Shown in pieces: positions 1,231 to 21,366 of a DNA stretch of 64,000 bases. The first letter of the stretch is position 1, and every line of letters begins with the position of its first letter. Origin of the DNA: Bacteroidota bacterium (lineage in GTDB: Bacteria > Bacteroidota > Bacteroidia > 2-12-FULL-35-15). A program made the position numbers and the translations under genes. The stretch is taken from positions 2,268 to 66,267 of the forward strand of contig CANFLQ010000004.1 of NCBI GenBank assembly GCA_947447995.1. The letters are read 5' to 3'. Under the pieces are notes generated by a model. The model was not told where the DNA came from and ran no database searches. It was given only the letters and a program-made list of their open reading frames with translations.

Positions 1231-4200
1231 TTATTTAGCGATTACAACTTTTTCAATCGTTACAAATTTTTCGTTAGCTACTCTAACTGTGTACACACCA
1301 TTAGCCAAGTTTAAAGTATTGATAACTTGTTTTTGGTTTGCAGTAGCATTTAAAGAAGCAACTTCAGTTCCATTCATATCAAATAATTGAACAGTAGCAT
1401 TTTCTGAAACAACTACATTGATAGTTTCAGCAGCTGGGTTAGGATATACACTTACATTATTAGTAGTTGCAAATGTAATATTACCATCCACTACTTCAAC
1501 ATTAACTTTGTCGCCATTCAAATAACCTGCTAATGATTTAAGATTATCTTTTTTAACATCGTCAGCTTTAACACGAACAGAAACAACTGGTTTAGTGATG
1601 TCTAAGTTTTGTAAGCTAAAAGAAGTAAATCTTAAAGTAGAATCAACATCATTCAAATTATCCAATGCATTTAAAGTAGCAATGTGGTTTACAATTGAAT
1701 TGTAAGCAACACCACCATTTAATTGTAATGCAAAGTCAAGCGCATTGATAACTTTATCAGATACTATTGAAACAGGTATGTTTACAAACCCGCCTTGAGC
1801 AATAGCTTTTGATAAGTCAAAAATAATTTTATCAGTAGTTGCTGATTTTAAAATTCCATCAGCAGCAATTGATTTAAAGTTACCATTAACATCTCCAAGC
1901 AAAACTCCAGTATAAACTTGAGCACCTATAACTGGGCAATCTGTTGGGTTAGTTACTGTTGATGGGATATTGAATGCTCCGTTTGCATTAACTGTTGAAG
2001 TTAAAACTGGAGACATTGATTTAGAAAAACCAACACCATCGTTAGCAGGGTAAATACTAGAGATCATGAAAGCACCATTAGTAGCTAATGTGTGTTCATC
2101 AACAAAAACCCAGTCGTTAGATCTACCTTTACCTGCTTTTTTAGAACCGTTAGCATTGTGGCTCCACGCTTGTTTGAATTCACCAATTGCTAATACCGAA
2201 CGTTGGTTCATTTGAGAAACGTCACCAGCACTAATTACACCATCTTGGTTAACATCCATTGCAATCATTTGAAATACATTTGGTATGAAAGATAAGTCGC
2301 CAACAACTACTTTTCTTGCCAATAACGCATCAAAACCGTTTACAACAGCTTGTACACTTTTTGAAGAATCGATATCTCTTACAATGTTAAAAGCCAATGA
2401 GCTTAATGTTGCTCCATTAGGGAACAATGAAAAAGCACCAGCAGCATTTGGAGTTGCAAAAGCAGCAGAAGGATGAGTACCAGCTAAATTGTTTGTGTAA
2501 ATTTTAGTTGCTACATTGTTATTGATTGCGCTGTGATCAGCCCAAAAATTTAAAGTACCAGTTAACGTACTGTCTTTGTATGTTCTATAGCTTCCTGCAT
2601 CAACATTTACAGATGAAACACCATTAACATAACTTTCTTGAAAATTAGTGATTTTGAATGAAGCAGTATCTACAGATCCAAAAAGATTTGTTTTGCTAAA
2701 TCCAACACAAATTAATTCTCCAATTCCATTGAAAGTTGTTCCTGTCGGAGCATTGTTGTTCAAAGAAACTGAGATGATTATATAACTGCTATCAGCAACA
2801 ACATTGCTTGCAATAGTAGTATAAATAGGGTTAGTTAACGTACCTGCTGTAATAGCACCAGTTGGAGTTACTTTGTTTTTATTGTAACGTAAAACCATAT
2901 CATATCCTATTACGTTAGCAGCAGGGTTTAATACTTTATTTACAGGCAAACAAAAACTAGGTATAGCACAAATAGCAGCAGCAGTTGCTATTTTGTATGG
3001 ATTACCAGCTGGGTTGTCAATTGTAAAAGCAATTGCTGAAGAAATGGTGTTGTCTCCAAAGTTATCAGTAGCTTTAGCAGTTAATGCAAAAGTACCATAT
3101 TGTGCAGCAGATATCCAAGCGATAGAATATGGACTTGTAGCATCAGTTCCTATTGATACACCATCAACAAAAAATTCTACACTTGATACAGTACCATCAG
3201 CATCTGCAGCAGCAGCAGTAATAGTAACAGTAGTTGTAGCAACACCGCCTAATACTGAACCAGCATTTGCAGGAGAAGAAATACTAACTGTTGGAGCAAC
3301 GTTGTTACCTACAGTAATATTTTTTGCAGCAGAAGTTGTTACAGCTCCTGCGTTATCATACGCTTTAGCTGTTAAAGCATAAGCACCAACTGTACTTGTT
3401 AAAGTGAAAGTGTATGGAGAAGCAACTTGTAATGCTTTACCAACTCTTATAGCACCGCGGTAAAATACAACAGAGTCAATTGTTCCGTCAGCATCAGCAG
3501 CAGTTGCCGAAAAGTTGATTGGAGCACCTGTTATATAAGATGTTCCTGTTGTAGGAGCATCTAAAGTAACTGTAGGAAGTGCGTTGTTTACTGCAGAAAA
3601 AATTACTGCCGAAGAAGTAGCAGTTTGCCCATCATTATCAGTAGCTAAAGCAGTGATAGTGTGAGTGCCAACAGTAGCAACTACAGTGTTTGTGTAAGCT
3701 GCAGTAACATCAGTACCAACTGAAACACCATCTACAAAAAATTGAACACTAGAAACAGCGCCATCATCAGCAGCAGTTGCAGCAATGTTTACGTTATTAC
3801 CTGTCATGTAAGTAGCGCCAGTTATTGGAGCTGTAATACTTACTGTTGGTGGTGTTCCAAAAGTACCTGTTAAACCTGCATTTGTTTGTTCAGAACCTAT
3901 TGGAGCAGAAGAAACATATTGTTCTACTGAAGCACCAATAGCCATTTGAAGGTTTAATTCAAAATGAAAAACACCATCAGTAGTAAATTGACCAACTAAT
4001 ACTCTGTTAGTAGGAGTGGGACCAGTAACACCACCTGCAACAGCAATTGCATGATTGTTTACCAATAATGAATTTCCTACCTGACTAATGTTATCAAATA
4101 AATCAAGTTCATTAGAAAAACCTGCAAGTGTAATTGTTCCATTTGTTGCAGGCATCATACCGTCTTGTGTTTTAACCGCTATACCGATAGAAACTGGAGC

Positions 4201-4641
4201 ATTATTTAAAATAGCATCACCTACAATAAAACTACCGTTAGTATCTTCTGCTTTAAGCATCCCTGCTTGACCTGAAGCAGCAGCACCCATAGAAACCCAT
4301 GAATCTAAGGCAGCAGCTTTGTTTTTCAAAAATCCAGTGCCAATAGCATTGGGTGTTGTTGCACCTCTATCCTCAGAGTTAAAGAAATGAGTAGAGGTGT
4401 TGATGTTTAAATTGTGATTAACATCACCGTATACAGCTTGTAGTTTATAACCAGTTGCCATATCTACATAAATTCTGTAAGTTATAGAACCTACAGGTAA
4501 TACGCCATCGCTACCAGCAGCATCAGCAGCATCACTTTTATAGTATTTTTCTACTATGATACCTTCCAACCCTTGAGCATGGGCTGCAACGTTTCCTAGC
4601 AAAGCTATACCAAGACCTAATATTAAATTTTTAGTTTTCAT
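1231..4641 (-). CDS. large T9SS-sorted surface protein: shared ~240-aa N-domain, three Big_7-like Ig repeats, cohesin-like and dockerin-like segments, type A sorting domain
   Basis: Signal peptide MKTKNLILGLGIALLGNVAAHAQ. The N-domain (IIVEKYY..GS.TYRIYVD..GYKLQAVYGD.NH) is shared with the ORFs at 8969, 13433 and 14239. Repeats carry A(T/A)AAD(A)DG..SV.FFVDG. DVNQDGVISAGD is an EF-hand/dockerin-like loop. The C-terminus VYPNPAAETINV...GVYTVRV is typical of a Por/T9SS type A CTD. Confidence 0.85.
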   Translation of the reverse strand: MKTKNLILGLGIALLGNVAAHAQGLEGIIVEKYYKSDAADAAGSDGVLPVGSITYRIYVDMATGYKLQAVYGDVNHNLNINTSTHFFNSEDRGATTPNAIGTGFLKNKAAALDSWVSMGAAASGQAGMLKAEDTNGSFIVGDAILNNAPVSIGIAVKTQDGMMPATNGTITLAGFSNELDLFDNISQVGNSLLVNNHAIAVAGGVTGPTPTNRVLVGQFTTDGVFHFELNLQMAIGASVEQYVSSAPIGSEQTNAGLTGTFGTPPTVSITAPITGATYMTGNNVNIAATAADDGAVSSVQFFVDGVSVGTDVTAAYTNTVVATVGTHTITALATDNDGQTATSSAVIFSAVNNALPTVTLDAPTTGTSYITGAPINFSATAADADGTIDSVVFYRGAIRVGKALQVASPYTFTLTSTVGAYALTAKAYDNAGAVTTSAAKNITVGNNVAPTVSISSPANAGSVLGGVATTTVTITAAAADADGTVSSVEFFVDGVSIGTDATSPYSIAWISAAQYGTFALTAKATDNFGDNTISSAIAFTIDNPAGNPYKIATAAAICAIPSFCLPVNKVLNPAANVIGYDMVLRYNKNKVTPTGAITAGTLTNPIYTTIASNVVADSSYIIISVSLNNNAPTGTTFNGIGELICVGFSKTNLFGSVDTASFKITNFQESYVNGVSSVNVDAGSYRTYKDSTLTGTLNFWADHSAINNNVATKIYTNNLAGTHPSAAFATPNAAGAFSLFPNGATLSSLAFNIVRDIDSSKSVQAVVNGFDALLARKVVVGDLSFIPNVFQMIAMDVNQDGVISAGDVSQMNQRSVLAIGEFKQAWSHNANGSKKAGKGRSNDWVFVDEHTLATNGAFMISSIYPANDGVGFSKSMSPVLTSTVNANGAFNIPSTVTNPTDCPVIGAQVYTGVLLGDVNGNFKSIAADGILKSATTDKIIFDLSKAIAQGGFVNIPVSIVSDKVINALDFALQLNGGVAYNSIVNHIATLNALDNLNDVDSTLRFTSFSLQNLDITKPVVSVRVKADDVKKDNLKSLAGYLNGDKVNVEVVDGNITFATTNNVSVYPNPAAETINVVVSENATVQLFDMNGTEVASLNATANQKQVINTLNLANGVYTVRVANEKFVTIEKVVIAK

Positions 4642-4831
4642 TTTTTTTGTAATTTTGTATGAATGAATTTTAGTGTTTTTACTATGATTTGTTTACTTTG
4701 ATTTAAAAAACTATAAATATTAATTGCAAGATTGGGTTGAATTGGTCTGAAATTCGTAGTTTCAGCCTTATTTGTTTTGAACCTTCTGCGTTAACATTTA
4801 TAGTTTTTTTATTTTTATTTACTTATAATAA

Positions 4832-6544
4832 TTAGTTACAAGATTGATTGTATTGACCTAACACTTGTAAAAAGTCAGTAACATTGGTTACACCATCTTG
4901 ATTTAAGTCTGCTGGGCATGGAGCAAGTCCTGGAGTAACACTTAAAATAGTAGCGTACGTCCAGTCCGACATCCAGTTTTTACCAGTTGGAGCAAATGCA
5001 CCTCTGTAAGCAGCAGCTGTAAAAAACCCATCAACTGGTGCTGTAGGGCAACCAGTTGTAGCCAATGCAGGGTTTGGTACTGCATCCACTTTGTGAGATA
5101 TAGCATTTGTAGCATTGTTTACAGCAAACGCGTAATCAAAACCAGCAATAGAAGCTACACTTTTATTTTTATCAGTAGTATAAAATTGAGCAGTATCGGT
5201 AGTAGCAACACCACCTGTAATTACACCACCTACAACAGATCCGCCAGCAGCATTTTTGTCAATTGCAAAATCTTTTGTCATACCCACAAAAGTGTTACAT
5301 TTAATTTTTAAGCTATTAGTGCTGTTACCACCTGTGTTTGCCCAGTTATGGTAAGATTCGCTAGCACCTGTTCTTGTACCAAGAGCTTTGATAACATTTA
5401 CACCGTAACGGAAGTTTGCAAATACTGAATTGGAAATTTCTCCTTCAGTTAATTCTTTTGCTTCAATAGCAGCTAAACCTGAGTTATCAGATGTTAAAGC
5501 AGCTTTGTTGTTACCAATCATTGTTGCGTTAAAAATAATTGGGTGAGCGTGTAATGTTGCATTTGATTTTTGGTCATCCGAATCCATTTCAAATCCGTTA
5601 TCAGCATCAGCAGAAGGAGAAGTTGCTGCATTGTCCGATTTCATACCGAAAATAAATTGGGCTTTTCCGTTATAGGCATCATCCCAATCAAACATATCAT
5701 CGTTACCAAATAAGAAAGTAGCATATTTAATGTTTACAGTACCACCCCAAAATTCCATGTTATCATCAGCACAAGAAATAACTTCAACATGGTCAACAGT
5801 AGTACCTCTTCCAACCGATCCGAAAGAAATACCATTTATTTCACCACCTACTTGAAGTGCAGCACCTGCATGTCTTACTGAAACGTATTTTAACACACCT
5901 GAATTGTCGTTATCGTCAAAAGATGCTGGAGCTACACCAAATTGATCTTTACCATTAGTGGAAGCAAATCCTTCAAATGTTCCAATTCCATCAGCAACAC
6001 ATAATCTGCCATCGCCCACACCTGCTTGAAAAGGACCATTAGCAGCTAAGGTTAAATTGTTAGAAGCTTTACCTGCTAATAATAATCCTCCCCATTGTCC
6101 TTTGTTTGAAATAGCATACGTTCCATCCAATGGATCAGCTTCTGCTGTGAATACAATTTGGCAATCAGCATTACCACTAGCAAAAATTTTACCACCTACT
6201 TCAACAGTAAGAGCAGTTGCTAAACTAGCATCTGCATTGAAACGACCTTTTATTAATGCACCTGCATTAATAGTTAATGTTTTACCATTTGGCACATAAA
6301 TCTTTTTATCTAAGATATATGTGTGAGCGCAATCAAAAATGGTGTTAGATGCTGTTAACTCACCATCACTAGCACCACCCGATGTAGCTAGTGTAGATAC
6401 AAGTACAGTGGGTCTTGAAGCTACAGAAGGGCATCCACAAGCAGCACCCAAATTTGTTTGGGCAAAACTAGGCGCCAAAGTTGTCATTGCTAATATAGCA
6501 GATGAAACTAGTTTTGAAATTGTTTTGTTTGTTTTCATTTTCAT
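4832..6544 (-). CDS. secreted protein of unknown function with a C-terminal dockerin-like calcium loop
   Basis: Signal peptide ..LAPSFAQ. Central DDNMEFWGGTVNIKY-type motif that I recall from uncharacterised Bacteroidota secreted proteins. The C-terminus ADLNQDGVTNVTDFLQVLG resembles a dockerin half-repeat. No T9SS CTD. Confidence 0.75.
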   Translation of the reverse strand: MKMKTNKTISKLVSSAILAMTTLAPSFAQTNLGAACGCPSVASRPTVLVSTLATSGGASDGELTASNTIFDCAHTYILDKKIYVPNGKTLTINAGALIKGRFNADASLATALTVEVGGKIFASGNADCQIVFTAEADPLDGTYAISNKGQWGGLLLAGKASNNLTLAANGPFQAGVGDGRLCVADGIGTFEGFASTNGKDQFGVAPASFDDNDNSGVLKYVSVRHAGAALQVGGEINGISFGSVGRGTTVDHVEVISCADDNMEFWGGTVNIKYATFLFGNDDMFDWDDAYNGKAQFIFGMKSDNAATSPSADADNGFEMDSDDQKSNATLHAHPIIFNATMIGNNKAALTSDNSGLAAIEAKELTEGEISNSVFANFRYGVNVIKALGTRTGASESYHNWANTGGNSTNSLKIKCNTFVGMTKDFAIDKNAAGGSVVGGVITGGVATTDTAQFYTTDKNKSVASIAGFDYAFAVNNATNAISHKVDAVPNPALATTGCPTAPVDGFFTAAAYRGAFAPTGKNWMSDWTYATILSVTPGLAPCPADLNQDGVTNVTDFLQVLGQYNQSCN

Positions 6545-6792
6545 TTTTGTTTGTTTTCTGTTTGATTGGTTTAAAATTTATGTTTTAATAATTAAATTCA
6601 CCATGGCTGATGAACGATACAAATGTCGTTCAAATACATATTCTTAACTTAATTTCAGACTTATGAAATTATTATTTGTATGTGGAATTAAGGTTAATGG
6701 AATGATAATTAAAAATCAACATGTTAAAAAAACGCTAACAGTTAATAATAATTAATTAACATTAAAAAGAAAGGTGAATAGAATGAGCGGGA

Positions 6793-7347
6793 CTAGAAAG
6801 CGGGAACTATTTTGTTAACCAACAACAATAGCTCATCAGAAGCAGAATCTCGGTTTAAGTTATATACTTTAAATTTATATAACCTTGCATTTTTTAGGAT
6901 CAAAATAAAAGGATTGTTTAATACATCCTTTACCAAAAAGGCTTCATCGCCTACCTGTTTAAGTTCTTTTACAACTAATGTTTTTTGATTTTCAGATTTA
7001 AAACTATCAAAAAAAGATTTTGCTTCGGCAGTTGTTTTGAATTGTTCCATAGCATAAAACATTTCTGTTCTTATCCATTTAACACTGTCTTTCAATGTAT
7101 TTGCCCAATACTTGCACTTAAATTTCCAAACTCCTCCTTCAAAATCCCAAGTGCTATCTTTAAGGTGGGCAGGCTCTTTTAGCATTTTTTCAGCTTCGGA
7201 AAGTGATGGATAAGTGAAGGTATTTAATATGCTATCTGGAATACTTATTTGATTGGCTTTTTTGTTTACGTTAGCTTTAGTAGTTGTTTGTGAGTAGCTA
7301 ATTACTGTTAAGGATAAAGCTAAGATTAGGAATAATATATTTTTCAT
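6793..7347 (-). CDS. hypothetical secreted protein
   Basis: 184-aa ORF with signal peptide MKNILFLILALSLTVISYSQ. No recognisable motif. It starts 36 nt downstream of the preceding gene. Confidence 0.55.
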   Translation of the reverse strand: MKNILFLILALSLTVISYSQTTTKANVNKKANQISIPDSILNTFTYPSLSEAEKMLKEPAHLKDSTWDFEGGVWKFKCKYWANTLKDSVKWIRTEMFYAMEQFKTTAEAKSFFDSFKSENQKTLVVKELKQVGDEAFLVKDVLNNPFILILKNARLYKFKVYNLNRDSASDELLLLVNKIVPAF

Positions 7348-7383
7348 TTTAGAAATACTTGAGTATAAATTGAGTATGATAAT

Positions 7384-8109
7384 TTAAAATTGGTAATACA
7401 AACCAACGTTTAATCCAACCGAATATAAATAACTTTTAACCGGTGCATTTATTACCGATGTTATGGAACGTCGGTAAATGGGTTCTAATTTAAAATTCAT
7501 TTTAGTTGAAATTGGGTAATCAATACCCAATCCAACTGTGTATGCAAAATTTATTTTTAAAAAATCAGACTGAACTGTCGTTGTTTTTTTTTCGGCGCTT
7601 CTACTATTGTAACCCAATATGGATGTTGTTTTTTGTGTTAAAAAAAAATTTGCAGATACGCCTGCTGTTACAAACAATTTTAATTTCCCTGTTAATATAT
7701 AATAGTTTGCTTTAACCGGAATGTCGAGGTACATATAGTGATAAATAAACCTATTGTTAACTGGCAACACTCCATTTGCAGGATTCAATAAAATGTATTT
7801 TTTTGTTTGTTCTCCTTTATCAGATAATAGCAATCCAGATGCAATTGAAATTTTTTTATTAATCAAATAAACAAAATTTATCCCTGTTGTATATCCATAT
7901 TTACCTATTTCCATTGTATCGCGTATATCTGCTATTAGTTTGCCTGAAGCATCGGATTTTAATTTTCTGTAATTATAATCTGGCGAATAGGTAATGCCAA
8001 TTTGTAGTTTTTTTATTTTTACGGAATCGCCTGTTTCAGAAAACAAGGTAAAGGGTAAAAAAATTATACATAATAGGTGAATTGTTTTCATCATTTTTAC
8101 TTTATTCAT
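7384..8109 (-). CDS. outer-membrane beta-barrel protein (porin-family/OmpA-like barrel)
   Basis: Alternating aromatic/hydrophobic beta-strand pattern ending in ..VGLYYQF. I chose the start at ATG 8109 (MNKVKMMKTIHLL.. signal peptide). The longer track ORF (to 8178) overlaps the upstream gene and reads through a hairpin repeat. Confidence 0.65.
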   Translation of the reverse strand: MNKVKMMKTIHLLCIIFLPFTLFSETGDSVKIKKLQIGITYSPDYNYRKLKSDASGKLIADIRDTMEIGKYGYTTGINFVYLINKKISIASGLLLSDKGEQTKKYILLNPANGVLPVNNRFIYHYMYLDIPVKANYYILTGKLKLFVTAGVSANFFLTQKTTSILGYNSRSAEKKTTTVQSDFLKINFAYTVGLGIDYPISTKMNFKLEPIYRRSITSVINAPVKSYLYSVGLNVGLYYQF

Positions 8110-8146
8110 AACTCCCTCTCCTTTGGAGAGGGCTGAGGTGAGGCAT

Positions 8147-8962
8147 TTAATTTTTAACACAACGTATACTAAAACCATACGTTTTAGCTCCGTAATATCT
8201 AAATATATTGGTGTTTTTATAATCTAAATATCGATACCAAACTTGGTTTCCGTTGGTAGTAGACGACCACCAAAAACCAGTATACGTTAATCCATAATCA
8301 CTCCAAATTCCATTAAACATACAACAACCACCTGCAAGCGCAGAAAAACCACTTTGGTTATTTTCATACAAATCTCCAAATTGATCCTTTGCCCAAGCTG
8401 GTTGGCCGCTTGATTCATCTAATTTTAGTTGTTTTAATTTTTGAGCTTCCGTTGTTCCTCTCCAACTTGTTTTTTCGGCATCTGATGCATTCATGCCCAA
8501 TTGTTTTTCTAATGTTTTCCATTCGTCATCGCTTGGTATATGCCATCCAACAGGAGCAATATTTTTGCTGTTGCTTACTGCATACCAGTTATAAAGCAAG
8601 CCATATATTTTAGCGTTTGCATTTTCATCGTTATAAATACAATACGCTCCTTTTTTACTATTTGCCCATGTTGTATCCGGAATGTTGGAACTGGGAGAAA
8701 TATTTAATACCATTTTGTTTATTGTGGTGCTATCGTTGTATCGGGTTACTTTTAAATTTTCGGCCATCCACCATTGGTTGCCAATTTTAATAGTTTTGTA
8801 AATGTTGCCATCTATATCTGTTACAGTACTTGTTTCGGAGGGAGCAACTTTATTTTCTTTTTTACAAGCGCTTGTAATTATTATAAACAAACTTGCTAAA
8901 AAAAATGTATAAAATTTTGTATACTGTTTCAACGCCATAATATTTAAAAATATGCTGTTCAT
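8147..8962 (-). CDS. FISUMP-domain lipoprotein (Fibrobacter succinogenes major paralogous domain)
   Basis: Lipobox ..ITSAC. Motifs DIDGN.YKT.KIGNQWWMAENL, GLLYNW, GWHIPSDDEW, GFSALAGG, FWWSST and GFSIRC are characteristic of the TIGR02145 family. Confidence 0.85.
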   Translation of the reverse strand: MNSIFLNIMALKQYTKFYTFFLASLFIIITSACKKENKVAPSETSTVTDIDGNIYKTIKIGNQWWMAENLKVTRYNDSTTINKMVLNISPSSNIPDTTWANSKKGAYCIYNDENANAKIYGLLYNWYAVSNSKNIAPVGWHIPSDDEWKTLEKQLGMNASDAEKTSWRGTTEAQKLKQLKLDESSGQPAWAKDQFGDLYENNQSGFSALAGGCCMFNGIWSDYGLTYTGFWWSSTTNGNQVWYRYLDYKNTNIFRYYGAKTYGFSIRCVKN

Positions 8963-8968
8963 CCAACC

Positions 8969-10294
8969 TTAATTTTTTGTAAATAATTTACTCTCATACG
9001 TATTGCCAACCAATACACGCATTAGGTATAAACCAGTATTCAAATGAGTAATGTTTATTGGTTCACTTATAACTCCCGAACGTTGACCTAAGTTTTTGTT
9101 TATAATGATGGTACCATACGAATCGAAAATGGAATAACTAAGGTCTGCATTGTTGCCACTCGTTATTAGTAAATTTATATTATCCTGCGCTGGATTTGGA
9201 TAAAGTTTAAATTCAACCGAATTGCTTATGTTAGGGCATACCAAACTAATATCACGGTTAGCGCATCTTCCAGGATAGCAGCATAACAATGGAATATTGT
9301 AATTTGCTTTAGAGTCATAGTTGCAAGCTAATGAATCCATACATCCCAATACTATAGTAGTTTTGCAGGATGCCATAATATCACAATCTCTGTCGGCCAT
9401 GTATTCCAAGTAGTTGGGATCGGGGCATCCGCATACTAGCTGAAAAGGGTATTTAAGAAATCGGCTTACTTTTTCGTTAGGTAATAAAACGCTATCGTTG
9501 GCAACATAAAAAATGCTCTTACCAAGTGAGTCGGCTATTTCTAAGTTGAGCTCAAATTTAATTGCACTTTTGGTTGTTAATTGTGCAATTAATATTTGAT
9601 TACTATCTTTATTTACCCCCATTACACCATTATTTGATAATCCTGCATTATAACTTATAAATGAATTGCTCTTTTTTACAGAGCCAAAAATGCTGGAATC
9701 AACACCAGTTATTCCATTTTTTATTCCATAATCAATCCAATTGGTTGGTACGTTTATCATTGGCTCTAAACCATCTGAGCTTGTTAAAGGGCTGCCGGCA
9801 GCGGCATTTGTATTGGTTAATAAACCCGTTGCGATGGCCGCACTTCCTCCGTCATTATTTATTCCTCCAACAATAGAGCCATTTGTATCTTGTGTTTTTA
9901 ATACCCCAAAATAAGTAGAACCCGCACTTTTATTTGTTTGCCCTAAAGTTATCCAGCTATCTAGGGCAACTGTATTTTCTTTCAAACGGTTGCTGCCAAG
10001 GTCTTTCCCAAAGGTTTGCCCTCTGTCGGTATTATTAAAAAATACAGAGTCGCTTGTAAATTTCAAAGCATGGTTAGCATCACCATATATTTTTTTAAGT
10101 AAATAACCCGGTTTTAAATCCACAAAAATTCTATAGGTGATTGAACCTGAATCAAGCTTTCCACCAATACTATTGGTAGCATCAATAGCGTTGGAAATAT
10201 AATATTTTTCTACAATTACTTTTTCTAATTGAGCATGAACAGCAATTGAAAAAAATAAAAAAGTAAAAATTAATAATATAGAAATACGTTTCAT
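8969..10294 (-). CDS. T9SS-sorted paralog with the shared N-domain plus a Cys-rich insert
   Basis: Signal peptide. N-domain VIVEKYYISNA..GSITYRIFVDLKPGY. Thirteen Cys within ~70 aa (CGCPDPNYLEYMADRDCD..ACNYDSKANY..CCYPGRC). C-terminal KLYPNPAQDNINLL..GLYLMRV T9SS type A CTD. Confidence 0.85.
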   Translation of the reverse strand: MKRISILLIFTFLFFSIAVHAQLEKVIVEKYYISNAIDATNSIGGKLDSGSITYRIFVDLKPGYLLKKIYGDANHALKFTSDSVFFNNTDRGQTFGKDLGSNRLKENTVALDSWITLGQTNKSAGSTYFGVLKTQDTNGSIVGGINNDGGSAAIATGLLTNTNAAAGSPLTSSDGLEPMINVPTNWIDYGIKNGITGVDSSIFGSVKKSNSFISYNAGLSNNGVMGVNKDSNQILIAQLTTKSAIKFELNLEIADSLGKSIFYVANDSVLLPNEKVSRFLKYPFQLVCGCPDPNYLEYMADRDCDIMASCKTTIVLGCMDSLACNYDSKANYNIPLLCCYPGRCANRDISLVCPNISNSVEFKLYPNPAQDNINLLITSGNNADLSYSIFDSYGTIIINKNLGQRSGVISEPINITHLNTGLYLMRVLVGNTYESKLFTKN

Positions 10295-10304
10295 GTAACT
10301 AATT

Positions 10305-13300
10305 TTAAAGTTTATAAGCTATACCCAATACAAAGTTGGTTCCGTATCTGTATGTATCATATAACACTCCCGATCCTTTGTACTCTCGTTTGATAGTCGC
10401 ATTTAATATATCGCGCACAGTTAAGTTCACACTAAAATGTTTGCCCAATGTTTTGGAAGTTTTAAAATCTATTAAATGTCTGGATAATTCATAAACATCA
10501 GGTATCGCTTTGTTATTGGACGATATAACCAATCTGGGACCTTGCACGTTGTAACTAAGTGCAATAGTTAAACCCGTTTTATCCGACGAATAGGTAAGTA
10601 TACCGTTGAGTATGTATGGAGCCTGCCCAAACATTGCTCTTGATATGGTGTCAACTGGTGTAAATTTTTTCATTCCGTCAGAGCCAATATCTATTGTTGA
10701 TCTAACAAACTTGCTTTGTGATTTTACAAATGTTACATTGGCTCTTACATCAAAATGTTTTGAAATTGTTTTTTTACCTTCCAACTCAAGTCCGGTAACA
10801 TACGATTTATCAACATTTTGCCAGGTATAGCCATTTGAATTTACTAATTCAATGTGATTTTTAAAATCTTTATAAAATAAACTTACGGATACATTATCTC
10901 CACTATTAAAGTAGGATTCGAACCGGAAATCATAATTTTTTATATGTACCGTTTTCAAATTCGAATTTCCAAAAACGGGAGCCCTTAATTCATTGTCAAA
11001 ACTTTGCAAGTCCGATAACTCTCGTATACTTGGTCGTGCAATTGTTTGGCTAAAGTTTAAACGCACATTTATTGTAGCAATAGTATCGCTTTTTAATTTA
11101 TAAATAGCATTCGCACTAGGTAAATAGTTTATCTCATTTAATTTTCCTGGATTAATCAATGGTGAACCGTCACGAACAAATCTACGTTTATCATTTGCCT
11201 CATATCCCAGTGCGTTGAACGAATAGACGTCGGTAAATATATTTCCATTTTCAACTCTTAATCCTCCCGAAAAACGCAATGCGGGGATTATTGAATAATC
11301 CAACATGGCATAAGCAGCAGCTATTTTACTGTACCCAAATGTATGATCGGCTACTGTTGAATTATTGCTGTAATACAGGTTTACGGAATTAATTGGCTTA
11401 CCATCTTTATCAACACCGTTTTGAATATTAAAATTACTTTGATCAAAGTATTGATCAAGATTATTATTTACGAGGGTGTTATTAGCGTATAATCCGGGGT
11501 TTACAAGGTATTGGTATTGGTCACTTTTTTTATTGTTTAATTGATACGCTCCACCAAATTTTAATTTGCGTATAAGGTCTGGGTTATCTGTATTTGATTG
11601 TATTGGCAATTCAGCAGATAATCTGGAATCAAACAAATTATCTGTTAAATACCTGTAATTTCTGTTAATACCTTCTCCAATAGTACGGTCTAACTGGTAA
11701 GTATTACTTTTAGGGTCATGCACATAAATTAAATTTCTGAAATCAGGAACGCTGCTTTTTCCATTTGTATAAGATGCGTTTGCTTCTATCTTAATTTTTG
11801 GTCCAGATATATAATGTTCCGATTTATATTGGTATACCAGCTGTTTGCGTTGCTCATATAATTGGCTTTTCCCAATCTTATTCTCAGAAGCATCTAACGT
11901 ATCTAATGAATTTCTAACAGTATTTACTCCCGTTAAATTAGGCATAAATAATAGTGAAACAGTATTGTTAGGAGTAAGTTTATAGGCTACATTTACCAAA
12001 GCACTCCAGCCATTATTTTCTCTGCTAATTTGCTGATTTAATGAGGATGTGGTTGTTCCTTTATCATCAATTCGGTTAACAGTTGATTTGGGATCGTACT
12101 GTATCGCACTGCTATATCTGAAACCTGCAATAAATCCAAGCGGTTTGCCAAATAATAGCATTTGATTACCAATATTAAAACTTTGTGTAAAATTTAGTGG
12201 GGCTTTACGTGTTGTAGTGTTCCAATTATTCGCAAATGATTTTCCGGTTGCAGGTACTCCCGCATTTATGGTATTAAATGCCTGCTGCTTATATGAACCA
12301 TTGTTATATAAATCTTGTGCATTTTTAAAGGCAACAGCATCATCCATTTGAGCTTTAGGAAGTAAGCCCAATTGTACCAGTCCTAACTTATAGTATGTAT
12401 TTGCTAATTGGCTGCCATCATCTATCCAGCCTGTTACACCAATTGATTTATAATAATCGCCTAATCCTAATGCTGATAATTGGGCATATTGGCTTGGGTT
12501 TGTATTGAAGTTCACAAAGTCGTTATGATTACGATCACGGAAATTATTATCATATCCAAGCCAGTCGGTAGTGCTACGTTGTGAACTCACAACATCTTTA
12601 AATGTTGTTTGATTGTTGTATCCAACCTGACTTTCAACATTTACAGTTAATTGATCGGGATAATCTTTTGTTTCAACAGATATATAAGCACCTGCCCAAT
12701 CGCCTGGTAAGTCGGGACTTGCTGTTTTTGTAATAATAACATTGTCTACCAAACTTGCAGGAAAAAGATCCAATTTAATGTTGTTAGTGAACGGATCCAA
12801 TGTTGGTATCCTTGATCCATTAATGGTTGTTTTTACATATCTATCGCCAATACCGCGCACAGTAATAAAACCACCATTGGTAGATACTCCCGAAACACGT
12901 GCAACAGCAGTAGTAACATTGGCATCGCCTCTGTTTTTCATTGCGTCGCCCGATACATATTCTATAGTTTTGGCTTCATTGATCTTTATATTTTCCATGT
13001 AATACTCCTTCCATTTTGATACTTTTGCAACTACTTCAACAGTGCCAAGTTCGTTTGATGCAGACTCTAAAACAAAATCTTTAACAATCACTTCCCCATT
13101 TTTTGGATGAACAATTGCTTCAATTGTTTTGTAACTGATATAAGATATGAGGAGTGTTTGTGCCGTGGAATCCTTTATTTTAATGGAATAATTACCATCC
13201 AAATCTGTAGCAACACCAATACCAGGATTTGATTTTAATATTACAGTAACACCAATCAATGTTTCACCACTTTTATCAGATATTTTGCCTCGGATGATTC

Positions 13301-13364
13301 CCTGAGCAATTGCGCTTGTTGCAGTAATTAAACTAATAAGGATTGCAAAAAATATTTTTTTCAT
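10305..13364 (-). CDS. TonB-dependent receptor with N-terminal CarboxypepD_reg domain
   Basis: GIIRGKISDKSGE.LIGVTV...TDLDGNYSI (CarboxypepD_reg), followed by plug motifs (VRGIGDRYVKTTINGSRIPTLDP..LDLFP) and a ~800-aa beta-barrel. No SusD-like gene follows. Confidence 0.9.
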   Translation of the reverse strand: MKKIFFAILISLITATSAIAQGIIRGKISDKSGETLIGVTVILKSNPGIGVATDLDGNYSIKIKDSTAQTLLISYISYKTIEAIVHPKNGEVIVKDFVLESASNELGTVEVVAKVSKWKEYYMENIKINEAKTIEYVSGDAMKNRGDANVTTAVARVSGVSTNGGFITVRGIGDRYVKTTINGSRIPTLDPFTNNIKLDLFPASLVDNVIITKTASPDLPGDWAGAYISVETKDYPDQLTVNVESQVGYNNQTTFKDVVSSQRSTTDWLGYDNNFRDRNHNDFVNFNTNPSQYAQLSALGLGDYYKSIGVTGWIDDGSQLANTYYKLGLVQLGLLPKAQMDDAVAFKNAQDLYNNGSYKQQAFNTINAGVPATGKSFANNWNTTTRKAPLNFTQSFNIGNQMLLFGKPLGFIAGFRYSSAIQYDPKSTVNRIDDKGTTTSSLNQQISRENNGWSALVNVAYKLTPNNTVSLLFMPNLTGVNTVRNSLDTLDASENKIGKSQLYEQRKQLVYQYKSEHYISGPKIKIEANASYTNGKSSVPDFRNLIYVHDPKSNTYQLDRTIGEGINRNYRYLTDNLFDSRLSAELPIQSNTDNPDLIRKLKFGGAYQLNNKKSDQYQYLVNPGLYANNTLVNNNLDQYFDQSNFNIQNGVDKDGKPINSVNLYYSNNSTVADHTFGYSKIAAAYAMLDYSIIPALRFSGGLRVENGNIFTDVYSFNALGYEANDKRRFVRDGSPLINPGKLNEINYLPSANAIYKLKSDTIATINVRLNFSQTIARPSIRELSDLQSFDNELRAPVFGNSNLKTVHIKNYDFRFESYFNSGDNVSVSLFYKDFKNHIELVNSNGYTWQNVDKSYVTGLELEGKKTISKHFDVRANVTFVKSQSKFVRSTIDIGSDGMKKFTPVDTISRAMFGQAPYILNGILTYSSDKTGLTIALSYNVQGPRLVISSNNKAIPDVYELSRHLIDFKTSKTLGKHFSVNLTVRDILNATIKREYKGSGVLYDTYRYGTNFVLGIAYKL

Positions 13365-13432
13365 TCGGATAAAACCAACAACTAGGTATAAATTTTTTGA
13401 GAAAAGGTTCTGTATTTATCTATTTTTATTAT

Positions 13433-14203
13433 TTATTTTTTTGAATTAAGGGCATCAAATTTTATCTCGGCCCCTTCAGCATCTTTAGCAACGTATTGCA
13501 TGGATGCACCTGTTGGTGTTCCAATTTGCAAATTTAATTCGTAGGATAGTTTTCCGTTTGTAGTTAATTGTGCAATCAAAATTTTATTATCAGCTGTTGC
13601 ACCTTTAACACCACCAAAAACTGCCCACGATACATTTGTACTTTTAAATGACGAAGCCTTTGTTGAATCTTGAAAAAATTTGAGATCATCGCCAAAATAA
13701 CTAACAGCGCGCACCTTTTCAGATGCAATAAGTCCGTCCGCTTTGGATAAAAATGATTTTGTAATTATTGATCCGTCTTTATCGTCCGTTTTAGGAATTC
13801 CTAAATGCGCTTTTGTTGCTGCACCAATGGTAAGCCAGGAATCTAAGGCCAGTAAATTTTGATTAATTAGCTCATTATCTATTCTATCTCCTGTTCTTTC
13901 TCCACTACGTTTAGCATTAAAAAATTCAGTAGTAGTTTCTATTTTAAGTTCATGTTTAGCTATTCCAAAAACGGCTTGCATAGTATAACCTGGTTTTAGG
14001 TCAACAAATATTCTATAAGTAACAGATCCCTTTGGAAGATAATTGTCAAGTGTATCCTTATAGTCCTTTAACTCTGAACCATTATACGTTTCCACAATTA
14101 TTCCTTCCAAAGCCAATCTGTCTGCGTCTGTTGGTGTTTTTTTCAATTGTGCCTTAGAGGCAAAGCAACTGAACATAAGCACACTAAAAATGAGTTGTTT
14201 CAT
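13433..14203 (-). CDS. secreted paralog consisting only of the shared ~240-aa domain
   Basis: Signal peptide, then GIIVETY..GSVTYRIFVDLKPGYTMQAVFG..LDSWLTIGAA..ILIAQLTTNGKLSYELNLQIG. No Ig repeat and no T9SS CTD. Confidence 0.8.
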   Translation of the reverse strand: MKQLIFSVLMFSCFASKAQLKKTPTDADRLALEGIIVETYNGSELKDYKDTLDNYLPKGSVTYRIFVDLKPGYTMQAVFGIAKHELKIETTTEFFNAKRSGERTGDRIDNELINQNLLALDSWLTIGAATKAHLGIPKTDDKDGSIITKSFLSKADGLIASEKVRAVSYFGDDLKFFQDSTKASSFKSTNVSWAVFGGVKGATADNKILIAQLTTNGKLSYELNLQIGTPTGASMQYVAKDAEGAEIKFDALNSKK

Positions 14204-14238
14204 ATTTTTATGTAATCGAGTTATTAGTTAGATAATAA

Positions 14239-15603
14239 CTAATTGATGATTAATTTTTTTGCTGAAGAAACACCATCTAATGTTATTACAATAAAATACT
14301 GACCAGCTGTGTAACTAGATACATTTATTTTTTCAAAGTAAGTACCAGTTATGCTTCCTAATTTTTTAGTTGCAATTATGCTACCAGTTACATTATATAT
14401 TGCATAAGTTGCAACACTTTGTTTTGATGTATTTATTTCGATACTAACAAAATCGCTTGTTGGATTTGGATATAATGATATAGCAGAAGCAAATGTTGCA
14501 AAATCCGCTATCGCTGTTATGCGTGAAACGATAATAGAAACAGCCGATGATGTTGTATGAGCACCTTTGTTATCCGAAGCAATTGTAGTTAATGTATGAG
14601 TTCCAGCAGTACTTACAACTGTAAATGTATAAGGCGAAGTAATATCTTTACCAATTTTTACCCCATCAACAAAAAACGCTACTGAATCAATTGTGCCATC
14701 GGTATCAGCCGCTGTTGCGGCAATAGCAACCGTAGCATCTGTATTGGATGTTGTATAGGTTGTAGCTGTTGCAGGTGTTGTTATACTAACTGTTGGCGCA
14801 ACATTTGGAGTTACACTATTTGTTGTACTGGTATAAACAAGTGATGGGATTGTTAACTCATCTCCAACAGGCGATGATGAAACGTATTGTTTAACAATTT
14901 TACCAACTGCCATTTGAAGGTTCAATTCAAAATGAAAAACCCCATCGGTGGTAAACTGTCCAATTAATATTCTGTTAGTTGATGTTGGTCCCTTTACGCC
15001 ACCAGCTAATGCAATAGCGTGGTTGTTTAAAGAAATTGAACTTCCTACTTGACTCTTGTCTCCAAAAAGGTCTAGCTCCGAACTAATACCTGCAAGTGTT
15101 ATTGTTCCGTTTGTGCCAGCAACCATACCATCTTGCGTTTTAATGGGAATACCTATTGATGCAGGAGTATTATTTAATATGGTATTTGCAGTAATAAAAT
15201 TGGTAACACTATTGTCCTCCGATTTTAAAACACCCATTTGTCCTAAAGCTGCGCCACCCATTGAAATCCATGAATCCAATGCGTTTGAACCATCTTTCAA
15301 ACTGATAGTTTTAATTCCGTTTGGTATTATCGCACCTCTATCTTCTGAATTGAAAAAAGTAGTACTTGTACTTATTTTTAGCGAGTGGTTAACATCACCA
15401 TATACTGCTTGTAAATTGTAGGCTGTATCTAAATCGGCATAAACTCTGTAAGTTACCGATCCAATTGCTAATCTACCAACGCTACCTGCTGTATCAGCTG
15501 CATTGGCAACATAATATTTTTCTACTATAATGCTGTCTAAACCTTGTGCGTATGTAAATGCGCTAAGAAAACCCAAACTTAAACTTAAGATAATTTTTTT
15601 CAT
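14239..15603 (-). CDS. T9SS-sorted paralog: shared N-domain, one Big_7-like Ig domain, type A CTD
   Basis: Very similar to the N-terminus of the 1136-aa protein (long identical runs such as GQFTTDGVFHFELNLQMA). It carries one AATAADTDGTIDSVAFFVDG repeat. C-terminal LYPNPTSDFVSIE..GQYFIVI. Confidence 0.85.
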   Translation of the reverse strand: MKKIILSLSLGFLSAFTYAQGLDSIIVEKYYVANAADTAGSVGRLAIGSVTYRVYADLDTAYNLQAVYGDVNHSLKISTSTTFFNSEDRGAIIPNGIKTISLKDGSNALDSWISMGGAALGQMGVLKSEDNSVTNFITANTILNNTPASIGIPIKTQDGMVAGTNGTITLAGISSELDLFGDKSQVGSSISLNNHAIALAGGVKGPTSTNRILIGQFTTDGVFHFELNLQMAVGKIVKQYVSSSPVGDELTIPSLVYTSTTNSVTPNVAPTVSITTPATATTYTTSNTDATVAIAATAADTDGTIDSVAFFVDGVKIGKDITSPYTFTVVSTAGTHTLTTIASDNKGAHTTSSAVSIIVSRITAIADFATFASAISLYPNPTSDFVSIEINTSKQSVATYAIYNVTGSIIATKKLGSITGTYFEKINVSSYTAGQYFIVITLDGVSSAKKLIIN

Positions 15604-16017
15604 GATATTGGTTGTTAAATGTATTGTTATGTAATTTTTTTATTGTTTAATTTGATGATACAAATCTCTGAATAGAATTTTGAGTTGTGTTAAATTAAGC
15701 ATCATGATTTAGTTAAATCAAGGTTAATAATTACATCAAAAGATGAATTAAAAATTTAACATTGGTGTTTAAATGATGATAAAAGAAGAGGTAATTTTAT
15801 TTTGGATATTTTATTAATCCCAATGTAGAATGGGTATTTGAGGCAATAAGAGCGAATTTAAAATTTGCTCTTAACTTTTAAGTAACATTAATTATTTTAG
15901 AGAGGATCTGCTGATTATGGAAGAAATAGTAACAAAAAATATTTTACAATATCTGCTCGTTAGTTTAAAACGACGTATTATGTGCAAGAATTTTCTTTCT
16001 AAAAAGCTACTTGTTTG

Positions 16018-16087
16018 CGTCATTGCGAGGAACGAAGCAATCCAATAGAATACTTTACTTGAGATTGCTTCCTTCCTCGCAATGACG
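16018..16087. repeat. palindromic intergenic element (25-nt arms, 20-nt loop)
   Basis: CGTCATTGCGAGGAACGAAGCAATC ... GATTGCTTCCTTCCTCGCAATGACG, with one mismatch between arms. The sequence type (cattgcgagg..gaagcaatc) is a dispersed palindrome I recognise from Bacteroidota genomes. Confidence 0.7.
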
Positions 16088-16165: not shown

Positions 16166-16528
16166 TTACAAAGCATTGTAATTTTTTTCACTGGTAAGTT
16201 TACCATTTTCATCCCACATAGACCAAGTTTCAACTTTTGCACTCATCTCATAGTGCATCTCGTAACGTTTGGTTCCTTGAGCATCCCAAACTAACCAGGT
16301 ACCATTTTTTTTCCCGCTTACATAATAAGCCTCTGCTATTTTATGCCCAGCTTCATCCCAACGTAACCACTGTCCGGTTTTATCATTGTTTATAAATGCA
16401 CCTGTTTCCATTACCTTTCCGTTTTCATAATAATAGGTAACAGCACCATCTTTTATTGTAGCATTTTGTGCCGAAACGGTTAAGGCTGAAGAAATGCTTA
16501 TTGCGAGTACAAAAAATATTTTTTTCAT
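16166..16528 (-). CDS. MORN-variant repeat protein (YwqK-like), secreted
   Basis: Signal peptide. Repeated G.W..W...G......Y..G...G.W units (KTGQWLRWDEAG, KNGTWLVWDAQG, ETWSMWDENG). Confidence 0.7.
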   Translation of the reverse strand: MKKIFFVLAISISSALTVSAQNATIKDGAVTYYYENGKVMETGAFINNDKTGQWLRWDEAGHKIAEAYYVSGKKNGTWLVWDAQGTKRYEMHYEMSAKVETWSMWDENGKLTSEKNYNAL

Positions 16529-16650: not shown

Positions 16651-16971
16651 TTATTCCGAAGCCAACTCTATAACAAGGCTGTTATAGGAATACGTATCAA
16701 CGGTAATTTTTGTATCGTTGTAGGAAATATATTTTACAACAAGTTCGGGTTTGTTGGTGTTAATGTTTGCAGAAAAATTACCATTCAAATCGGTATAAAT
16801 AATTTTATCTCCCAATTTAATTTCAGCGCCTGCAATTTCTTCGCCGCTTACTTTATCAATTACTTTTCCTGAAATTAAATGTGTTTTGTTTTTTTCATTA
16901 TCAGTATGATTACCCGAAAAGGCAATTAGTGCTATAATAAATAATGCAAAAGTTAAAAAGTATTTTTTCAT
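16651..16971 (-). CDS. small secreted CarboxypepD_reg-like domain protein
   Basis: ISGKVIDKVSGEEIAGAEIKLGDKIIYTDLNGNFS matches the carboxypeptidase-regulatory-like fold signature. N-terminal signal or anchor. Confidence 0.6.
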   Translation of the reverse strand: MKKYFLTFALFIIALIAFSGNHTDNEKNKTHLISGKVIDKVSGEEIAGAEIKLGDKIIYTDLNGNFSANINTNKPELVVKYISYNDTKITVDTYSYNSLVIELASE

Positions 16972-17189
16972 TTTGTTGATTAATAATCTGATACAAAATT
17001 AACCTTCGTTATCAAGAATAAAGGAATCAAAAATTTAAGCAATTATGAAGATTGTGTTACCAATGTAAATTTTACGTTACGTTTATTGTTATTGCTGTTA
17101 AATGATGTAATTTCCTAAAGTAAAGTTAAACTTAACTTAATGTAACATTTCTTGTATAAGAATACCTTTACCAACTTAAAAAAGGGATA

Positions 17190-21335: not shown

Positions 21336-21366
21336 TAAATAACAGAATTAAAATATATTTTACCAA

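Follow-up and report, generated by a model that had tools for sequence, protein, structure and literature searches.

A TonB receptor/beta-helix locus of uncultured Bacteroidota is elaborated with an unannotated family of secreted domains and may scavenge phosphorus

The window analysed here is a 64-kb stretch of DNA from a Bacteroidota bacterium (contig CANFLQ010000004.1 of assembly GCA_947447995.1), and our subject is a cluster of nine genes within it that contains four paralogs of an unnamed secreted domain. We call the shared domain X and its paralogs X1-X4. X forms a family of beta-sandwich fold class, is linked to TonB-dependent receptors (TBDRs), and occurs in a set of paralogs whose architecture includes type IX secretion system (T9SS) signals and, in one protein, a cohesin fold. 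A beta-helix protein of the cluster is homologous to proteins that adjoin TBDRs in other bacteria, and loci of this kind are associated with phosphate genes. The explanation that we favour, and to which we give an even chance, is that the locus encodes a TonB uptake system of the ElpS/PUS type that scavenges phosphorus, with the X domains as its ligand-capturing heads.

An original prediction made from the sequence had placed nine minus-strand open reading frames (ORFs) between 1231 and 15603, and all of them are present:

14239..15603, minus strand: X1, 454 aa; signal peptide (A↓Q), X head, one Big_7 domain, type A T9SS tail
13433..14203, minus strand: X2, 256 aa; bare X with a signal peptidase I (SPI) signal, no lipobox and no T9SS tail
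10305..13364, minus strand: TonB-dependent receptor, 1019 aa; CarbopepD_reg_2, Plug and 22-strand barrel; not SusC
8969..10294, minus strand: X3, 441 aa; X head, Cys-rich linker, type A T9SS tail
8147..8962, minus strand: FISUMP-domain lipoprotein; lipobox ITSA↓C
7384..8178, minus strand: small outer-membrane (OM) beta-barrel (OMP_b-brl_2); true start probably the internal MNKVKMMKT
6793..7347, minus strand: p184, a 184-aa secreted protein with no family match
4832..6544, minus strand: beta-helix protein, 570 aa; SPI signal, CGCP N-terminus, family hallmark YRGAF..W..DWT, C-terminal dockerin-like Ca loop
1231..4641, minus strand: X4, 1136 aa; X head, three Big_7 domains, cohesin, dockerin-like module, second beta-sandwich, type A T9SS tail

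The first seven genes had been described as lying 6-68 nt apart. This is true of X1 and X2 (35 nt), X2 and the receptor (68 nt), the receptor and X3 (10 nt), X3 and the FISUMP gene (6 nt), and the OM barrel gene and p184 (36 nt), but the FISUMP and barrel genes overlap by 32 nt as listed; the overlap becomes a gap of ~37 nt if the barrel protein begins at its internal MNKVKMMKT. Gaps of 248 nt and 190 nt separate p184 from the beta-helix gene and the beta-helix gene from X4. Pfam and NCBIfam models bear out the call of a CarboxypepD_reg-type receptor (CarbopepD_reg_2, Plug and barrel) as well as the FISUMP and small OM barrel calls (FISUMP and OMP_b-brl_2). Likewise, the nine cluster proteins have zero matches to SusD models of Pfam or NCBIfam, consistent with the predicted lack of a SusD-like gene. 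Two further proteins had been described only as secreted; this description still suits the 184-aa protein, whereas the 570-aa protein is, by homology, a beta-helix protein of the kind that partners such TBDRs.

X is ~230 aa long and directly follows the signal peptide in all four window paralogs. That the proteins at 14239, 13433, 8969 and 1231 share this N-terminal domain had been read from the letters alone, and both multiple alignment (35-65% identity) and BLASTP agree: X2 matches X3 at E 7e-39 (35% identity) and X1 matches X4 at E 6e-135, far beyond chance. The domain had not been recognised as any family, and it finds no match in Pfam-A, NCBIfam or PDB sequences, even in a profile search of the PDB. 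A word-indexed search returned 727 relatives, all unnamed, and no precomputed Pfam domain lies on X relatives, the column being empty for all 120 listed homologs. The family is nevertheless large. A HMMER profile search of 1.84 billion representatives yielded 1,526 X clusters (50% identity) at E<=1e-3, 610 of them at E<=1e-30. All sampled carriers, from 80 genome loci and the members of ten clusters, are Bacteroidota metagenome-assembled genomes (MAGs) or metagenomes; the ten clusters hold MAG/metagenome entries only, with no named or cultured carrier among them, and X2 found no counterpart among PLSDB plasmids in tblastn.

In the AlphaFold2 model of X2 (47 sequences; pLDDT 86.3, pTM 0.85), a long and partly helical insertion interrupts a beta-sandwich. 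A Foldseek search of the PDB with this model found nothing at E<=1e-3, and the weak matches were to TTHA1873, the copper protein YcnI and type II cohesins (TM 0.2-0.45, rmsd 7-11 Å). As modelled, X is a beta-sandwich without a close structural relative. In larger proteins the domain is almost always an N-terminal head, sometimes repeated up to four times, and its fusion partners are Big_7, Big_2, TSP3, MAM and the T9SS tail only, with no enzyme fusion. Among 252 X domains taken from the 80 loci, conservation reaches 90% or more at ~29 positions, which are mostly polar and common to all paralog classes. In X2 numbering, these are E38, Y40, Y41, D47, L56, T62, Y63, R64, G80, H84, F94 and N96 in the first part; D121, W123, G127, G135, D141, D156, G157, F177 and F186 in the middle; and N206, L209, Q212, T214, T215, G217, L223 and N224 in the last part. 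The polar signature of the domain consists of E38, Y40, Y41, D47, T62, Y63, R64, H84, N96, D121, W123, D141, D156, N206, Q212, T214, T215 and N224.

Is X tied to TonB receptors outside the window? Our comparative set comprised 80 species-level loci with X genes (labelled L001 and so on). A homolog of the window receptor is present in 70 of them, at a median of 44 bp from an X gene, and nearly all of the ten receptor-less loci are truncated by contig ends; only L009 is a clear solo X gene. The original prediction had named two outcomes that would speak against it, namely that the domain belongs to a known family with an unrelated role, or that its homologs elsewhere are not associated with TonB receptors, and we found neither. 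A locus carries 3.2 X copies on average (range 1-6), and their positions are highly regular: the X3-type gene lies directly downstream of the receptor in 55/56 loci, an X1/X4-type gene directly upstream in 52/59, and the bare X2-type gene occupies the second position upstream in 49/56. The X2 and receptor genes overlap in some loci; in L003, for example, X2 runs to 10789 and the receptor begins at 10786. The X paralogs are ancient, position-specific classes.

These classes differ in their predicted destination. Type A T9SS tails (Por_Secre_tail/TIGR04183) score above the curated cut-offs on X1, X3 and X4 and are lacking on the 256-aa X2, as originally predicted. Because of these tails, X1, X3 and X4 should be displayed on the surface or released. 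T9SS C-terminal domains are found on 133 of the 213 complete X proteins, and the other 80 proteins are bare (median 275 aa); 65 of the 80 loci encode both forms. The bare forms have SPI signals ending in A↓Q, with a lipobox in 0 of the 63 examined. Since X2 has an SPI signal only and neither lipobox nor T9SS tail, this near-universal class is predicted to be periplasmic rather than surface-tethered. The earlier picture of surface-tethered capture proteins stands in part: the architecture of head, stalk and T9SS tail fits a surface or secreted binder, but the bare X2 is predicted to reside elsewhere.

Two features of X proteins are noted in passing. Residues ~270-360 of X3 (window 9215-9487, minus strand) form a Cys-rich linker of the pattern GC.DP.Y..., ...C.D..ACNYD..A..., for which Pfam gives no match even at E<=5. 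In a Flavobacteriales-like lineage (L047, L053-L055, L057 and L077) there are 5-6 tandem X genes, FISUMP is absent, and some X proteins end in a two-loop dockerin that replaces the T9SS tail.

The second element of the system is the 570-aa protein. The protein itself matches nothing in Pfam or NCBIfam, and its homologs carry a precomputed match to PF28492 (Beta_helix_4). Its gene is found in 40 of the 80 loci. Outside the X loci, tblastn against plasmid and chromid records identified relatives in Parabacteroides distasonis, Hymenobacter, Aureibacter, Sphingomonas and Pseudoalteromonas, each of which adjoins a TBDR; the Sphingomonas pair lies beside a type II secretion system and the Pseudoalteromonas pair beside tonB-exbBD. 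In BLASTP, the window protein aligns with the TBDR-adjacent protein of P. distasonis over 491 aa at 32% identity (E 1e-44) and matches those of Sphingomonas and Pseudoalteromonas at E 1e-27 to 1e-36. The C-terminal hallmark Y[KR]GAF..W..GWT is shared with three of these five relatives (P. distasonis, Hymenobacter and Pseudoalteromonas). The receptor follows the same lines, with full-length similarity to the TBDR beside the Pseudoalteromonas homolog (E 1.7e-47) and partial similarity to the beta-helix-adjacent TBDRs of Parabacteroides and Sphingomonas. Its best NCBIfam model is TonB-Xanth-Caul, below the cut-off, and it has no SusC match. PDB sequence searches with the beta-helix protein, the receptor barrel, FISUMP and a cohesin profile returned nothing useful. 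As an aside, the beta-helix homolog on the Hymenobacter plasmid NZ_CP110137.1 (L089, 8851-10284) is labelled 'cell shape-determining protein MreB' in RefSeq and looks mis-annotated.

Such pairs have been described before. BT4055/BT4056 is a pair of TonB-dependent transporter (TBDT) and 'lid' that is kept in 621 genera, and BT4056 has 40% identity to Fjoh_0546 and is related to Caulobacter ElpS (10.1101/2023.03.17.533168). ElpS is a surface lipoprotein made under phosphate starvation and linked to alkaline phosphatase activity (PMC2996285), and its gene adjoins a TonB receptor and the type II secretion system (10.1101/2023.03.17.533168; PMC2996285). In Flavobacterium johnsoniae, the beta-helix proteins FI/FII are among the exoproteins most strongly induced by depletion of inorganic phosphate (Pi), and the loci PUSIII/PUSIV hold FI/FII, TBDTs (pf07715 + pf13715), T9SS-domain hypotheticals, a PPK-like gene, phoBR, OprP and a pf04101 glycosyltransferase (PMC8115612). 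On the basis of sequence, the 570-aa protein is assigned to the ElpS/BT4056/Fjoh_0546 family through synteny-defined relatives, the named members being compared by description only. Judged by the same relatives, the window shares with ElpS, BT4055-BT4056 and PUSIII-IV a receptor that stands beside a homologous beta-helix partner. It departs from the ElpS type in that its partner is not an outward-facing lipoprotein. Of the 39 beta-helix relatives in X loci, 37 are SPI-type without a lipobox, and the other two show a spurious lipobox-like match inside the signal peptide; the A↓Q cleavage motif is found in 34/39 and the CGCP N-terminus is conserved. Outside the X clade, the lipobox is present in 5/5.

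What takes the place of the lipid anchor? The complete beta-helix proteins of X loci all end in a disulfide-flanked Ca loop, PTDxNxDGxT(N/D)xxDF, which in the window reads DLNQDGVTNVTDF. This single loop matches Dockerin_1 at E 0.038, below the cut-off. Dockerin-like loops occur in 33/40 beta-helix proteins, 8/253 X proteins and 1/306 other ORFs, and in 0/5 of the beta-helix relatives outside the X clade, all of which are lipoproteins; three of the five end at the family hallmark without a dockerin-like extension. Comparison of these sequences indicates that the beta-helix protein of the X clade gave up a lipid anchor and gained a dockerin-like tail. In 32 of the 33 loci that could be evaluated, the next gene after the beta-helix gene is an X gene, which in the window is X4. 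Homologs of X4 aa 540-1060 carry PF00963 (Cohesin) and PF00404 (Dockerin_1). The AlphaFold2 model of the X4 mid-region has a pLDDT of 87.7, and within it aa ~545-700 match type I cohesins in Foldseek with probability 1.00, TM 0.72-0.77 and rmsd ~3 Å; the top multi-domain matches are CipA cohesin-X-dockerin fragments. According to the model, X4 contains a true cohesin and is scaffoldin-like. Its own dockerin-like module scores E 4e-4 with Dockerin_1, also below the cut-off.

Evidence for a phosphate link comes from the genes around the X loci. The following genes lie upstream of the cluster in the window:

16166..16528, minus strand: small secreted MORN_2/YwqK-like protein, a recurrent companion of the module
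16651..16971, minus strand: small secreted CarbopepD_reg_2 protein (CPDreg), a recurrent companion
17190..17873, plus strand: orphan OmpR-family response regulator (RR); best model PhoB, below cut-off
17891-18772, minus strand: ppx, polyphosphate gene flanking the cluster
18779-20857, minus strand: ppk1, polyphosphate gene flanking the cluster
20940-21750, minus strand: two adjoining single-domain receivers (131 and 127 aa), one DVU0259/DivK-like, between ppk1 and the PhoBR-like pair
21993-22676, plus strand: PhoB-like response regulator; best NCBIfam model PhoB, below curated cut-off
22722-23756, plus strand: PhoR/PnpS-like kinase (HK); two transmembrane segments, no periplasmic domain; below curated cut-off
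23887-24960, minus strand: pf04101 glycosyltransferase (GT), third member of a GT-HK-RR trio

The composition of the GT-HK-RR trio equals that of the F. johnsoniae phoBR operon, and Fjoh_0541/0543 share its Pfams. In L001 a GT-HK-RR block directly abuts the X cluster, with an RR 89% identical to that of the window. To find recurrent neighbours, we clustered all ORFs of the 80 loci and then annotated the clusters. The recurrent neighbours include PstS, PstB, PhoU, an OprP-like porin (weak), His_Phos_1, PPK and PPX. RR genes flank the X cluster in 14 loci by tblastn or 16 by ORF clustering. The neighbours come in at least four arrangements: HisPhos1-PPK-PPX-RR...X (window, L006, L010, L037 and L082, with ppx/ppk adjacency as in the window also found at L005/L006, L010, L037 and L082), OprP-like-PstS-PstCAB-PhoU-CPDreg-MORN-X (L036, L042 and L044), PstS-OprP-like(-RR) divergent from X (L028 and L070), and PPX-RR-X (L069 and L071). 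VTC/DUF4956/DUF2490 genes lie near the cluster in L003 and a CHAD gene in L005. Outside the X clade, genes for a porin and a DNA/RNA non-specific endonuclease adjoin the Hymenobacter pair, and a PI-specific phospholipase C is encoded near the Aureibacter pair. We regard phosphate-gene adjacency as strong circumstantial evidence for a phosphate link, not as proof of it.

Another set of neighbours was judged unrelated to the system. In one lineage (L060, L061, L064, L067, L073, L074, L079 and L083), a polysaccharide-synthesis flippase and 1-3 sulfotransferases precede the cluster on the opposite strand.

The DNA upstream of X1 holds direct repeats that are candidate operators:

15697..15887, minus strand: cluster promoter region; TTAAC(A)-type direct repeats with ~11-bp phasing
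15697-15712: repeat TTAACCTTGATTTAAC, the part of the promoter region nearer the X1 start
15870-15887: repeat TGTTACTTAAAAGTTAAG; a second copy of the motif lies at 17131-17147

Direct repeats phased by 11 bp are typical of OmpR/PhoB-family sites. The motif TGTTAC-N5/6-GTTAAG has two copies in the 64 kb against 0.05 expected, and both fall in promoter regions, one at 15870-15887 and the other, at 17131-17147, in the divergent promoter between RR227 and CPDreg. The stretch TTAACCTTGATTTAAC...TTTAACA near the X1 start is conserved with L006. More broadly, repeats of the class GTTA[AC]-N5-7-GTTA[AC] are four times as frequent within 300 bp upstream of the cluster as in other intergenic DNA of the same loci (14 matches in 12/71 loci, binomial p=2e-4). 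The Riemerella OmpR-family 'PhoP' binds TTTAACA in DAP-seq; this motif is ArcA-like and not specific to phosphate, and we therefore take the repeats as evidence of an OmpR-family site only. An Rfam scan of positions 1-24000 for a riboswitch or known leader upstream of the cluster gave sub-threshold chance matches only. The stop of the MORN gene and the promoter region of X1 flank a hairpin at 16018-16087, which has 25-nt arms that are 96% complementary and a 20-nt loop (CGTCATTGCGAGGAACGAAGCAATC / GATTGCTTCCTTCCTCGCAATGACG); it is the sole copy in the window and is probably a terminator or insulator.

How might these parts work together? We propose a system that is built on the receptor and beta-helix module and was elaborated with X in uncultured, mostly freshwater Bacteroidota. 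When phosphate is scarce, a PhoB-like response regulator would bind the TTAAC-type direct repeats and activate the operon. In X1, X3 and X4, which carry T9SS tails, X sits at the distal N-terminal end of stalks of different lengths. There, the X heads, sharing ~29 near-invariant and mostly polar residues, may bind one class of phosphorus ligand and concentrate it at the receptor, and the cohesin of X4 could dock the dockerin-like tail of the de-lipidated beta-helix protein. The receptor would import the ligand, periplasmic X2 would receive it, and phosphatases and Pst would complete uptake. Candidate ligands are organic phosphoesters or polymers (nucleic acid, phytate or polyphosphate) or particle-bound phosphate. 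We infer five things, namely induction by phosphate limitation, ligand binding by X, a periplasmic relay, docking of the tail on the cohesin, and the nature of the substrate. A fully cellulosome-style version, in which a T9SS-displayed phosphorus-scavenging complex carries the beta-helix protein docked on X4, and X, as a new class of binding module, binds the same phosphorus ligand on both sides of the OM (X1, X3 and X4 outside, X2 in the periplasm) and relays it through the receptor, seems to us quite unlikely. In such a complex, the beta-helix protein would possibly be exported piggy-back through the T9SS.

Several observations weigh against the phosphorus-scavenging explanation or parts of it. 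Phosphate genes are adjacent in only 11/80 loci, with response regulators in others, and some of this adjacency may have been inherited as synteny instead of arising independently. The window regulators score below the curated PhoB/PhoR cut-offs, and the repeat motif resembles generic OmpR/ArcA-type sites. Each X member in our sample derives from a MAG or metagenome. As to docking, the tail is a single Ca loop, unlike a canonical two-repeat dockerin, and L003 and L007 keep the dockerin-like tail beside a short X protein without a cohesin. Moreover, we recognise no means by which the beta-helix protein or X2 would cross the outer membrane. Should the beta-helix protein stay periplasmic, it cannot dock on surface-exposed X4 unless the two are co-exported.

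Three other explanations deserve consideration, all of them less well supported than phosphorus scavenging. One is that X is an assembly or anchoring module that receives dockerin-like tails, rather than or in addition to the X4 cohesin, and tethers beta-helix and X-dockerin proteins around the receptor in a complex at the surface or in the periplasm. We consider this unlikely. It would account for the perfect co-occurrence of the dockerin-like tail with X loci in the sample, for the loci that keep the tail without an adjacent cohesin-bearing X4, and for the few X proteins that themselves end in dockerins; it would also suit the prediction that bare X2 and the beta-helix protein are both periplasmic. 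Type II cohesins are among the weak Foldseek matches of X, but these have probability <=0.33 and TM <=0.35, and hhalign of X against the X4 cohesin profile gives a probability of 0.15%, values on which we rejected the idea that X is a divergent cohesin. A bona fide cohesin is already present in X4, and ligand capture suits a set of three to four diverged paralogs, with varied stalks but one conserved polar site, better than the binding of a single tail does. A glycan system without SusD, acting on a pectin-like substrate for example, is in our view very doubtful. Here X would be a carbohydrate-binding module (CBM), the beta-helix protein a lyase or hydrolase, and the phosphate genes a coincidence. 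The partner family is indeed placed in the pectin-lyase superfamily, and its members can be modelled on polygalacturonase; FISUMP, cohesin and dockerin modules stem from fibrolytic systems; and the beta-sandwich fold of the X model is that of many CBMs. The receptor's best NCBIfam match, TonB-Xanth-Caul, although below the cut-off, points the same way, as members of this subfamily often import carbohydrates. Yet across the 80 loci no carbohydrate-active enzyme (CAZyme), SusD-like family or sugar-catabolic gene recurs, and what does recur, in several arrangements, is pst, phoU, ppk, ppx, an OprP-like porin and PhoB-like regulators. Pi depletion switches on the homologous module in Caulobacter (PMC2996285) and in F. 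johnsoniae, where, according to the authors of that study, such Pi-responsive loci are tightly repressed under N and Fe limitation (PMC8115612).

The third alternative, import of a metal or metal chelate by means of a metallophore-like or cupredoxin/YcnI-type X domain, strikes us as highly improbable. Metal chelates are classical cargo of TonB receptors, the best Foldseek matches of X are copper-binding YcnI and TTHA1873 (probability 0.7-0.9), and one distant X-family member is annotated with a MopE-type metal-binding motif. These structural matches reach a TM of only 0.24-0.45, at an rmsd of 7-9 Å. A YcnI/DUF1775-type copper domain was also considered directly and dropped: its best TM is 0.45 at an rmsd of ~7 Å, the mature N-terminus of X is Gln, which rules out a His brace, and no metal-ligand set is conserved, the invariant residues containing one His only and no Cys/His/Met cluster. 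Finally, no Fur, Zur or metal-homeostasis genes recur near X in the 80 loci. Taken together, the functional interpretation first offered for the locus, capture proteins feeding a TonB receptor, is partly supported, and phosphorus scavenging with X as ligand-capturing heads is the form of it that we prefer.

The remaining genes of the cluster vary in how widely they are kept. FISUMP genes are present in 46/80 loci, always after an X3-type gene. The small OM barrel is lineage-restricted (4/80) and p184 homologs are found in 5/80, p184 itself having no Pfam match even at E<=5. The MORN gene, found in 9 (tblastn) or 10 (ORF clustering) of the 80 loci, always lies upstream of the X genes, and the window protein is 35% identical to a YwqK-family gene that follows the P. 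distasonis TBDR/beta-helix pair. Farther away in the window, a 1526-aa protein (32095-36675, minus strand) that combines six PKD_5 repeats with a T9SS signal of type B (CHU_C) marks a second, unrelated T9SS cargo locus, in which small genes follow, including one for a weak OMP_b-brl protein at 30773-31459. The window also encodes a HerA-like helicase (29132-30691, minus strand; HerA_C E 3.5e-173, DUF87). In L015, L026, L031, L056 and L058, a PKD/CHU_C (type B T9SS) protein and a PorP/SprF gene are directly upstream of the X cluster.

Why does this locus matter? TonB receptors that are induced by phosphate starvation and have beta-helix partners span hundreds of genera, and X adds to them a large unannotated family (~1,500 clusters), many of whose carriers come from lakes, reservoirs and groundwater, where growth is commonly limited by phosphorus. 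If X is indeed a ligand-binding head, the small and soluble X2 would offer a direct handle on the substrate of this receptor family. If the cohesin, the dockerin-like tail and the anchor swap function as proposed, they would be an unusual example of a T9SS-based nutrient-capture assembly on the surface of Bacteroidota.

The closest known systems are PUSIII (Fjoh_3851-3859) and the PUSIV/phoBR operon (Fjoh_0541-0549) of F. johnsoniae, which are induced by low phosphate and have the same gene set as the window (Lidbury et al. 2020, PMC8115612). There, a non-SusC TBDT stands beside the pectin-lyase-fold FI/FII, with T9SS hypotheticals (Fjoh_3854/3855) in the cluster. FI/FII are lipoproteins, whereas the window partner has an SPI signal and a dockerin-like tail, and the window cluster also has four X paralogs, FISUMP and a cohesin-bearing scaffoldin. 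BT4055/BT4056 and Caulobacter CCNA_00170/ElpS (10.1101/2023.03.17.533168; Le Blastier et al. 2010, PMC2996285) likewise keep a receptor and a beta-helix partner in conserved proximity, and the P. distasonis pair is accompanied by a YwqK/MORN gene as in the window. In contrast to the window clade, BT4056 and ElpS are lipid-anchored surface partners, and no X genes accompany them.

Three other known systems invite comparison. SusC/SusD utilisomes with surface glycan-binding proteins also gather several surface binders, each with an Ig-like stalk and a distal binding domain, around a TonB transporter; the window differs in lacking SusD, a SusC-type receptor and CAZymes, in having T9SS cargo rather than lipoproteins as binders, and in its phosphate context. 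Hemophore systems (HmuY-HmuR and HasA-HasR) share the concept of a secreted or surface binder that feeds a TonB receptor encoded adjacently, but have no sequence or fold similarity to X, and the window has multiple paralogs including one predicted to be periplasmic. Cellulosomal scaffoldins (C. thermocellum CipA, 4fl4/3kcp) resemble X4 in that a type I-like cohesin precedes a dockerin-like helical Ca-binding module, and cellulosomes resemble the window in that a neighbouring gene product has a dockerin-like tail. Unlike a cellulosome, the window system has a T9SS-tail anchor, a Gram-negative host, a putative beta-helix cargo of the phosphate-starvation type in place of a glycoside hydrolase, and a single Ca loop. 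The receptor/beta-helix module and its response to phosphate starvation are already known. What is new is the X family, the obligatory presence of several of its paralogs in that module, the division into T9SS and bare forms, and, as sequence and model indicate, the change of the partner from a lipid anchor to a dockerin-like tail, next to an X protein that bears a cohesin.

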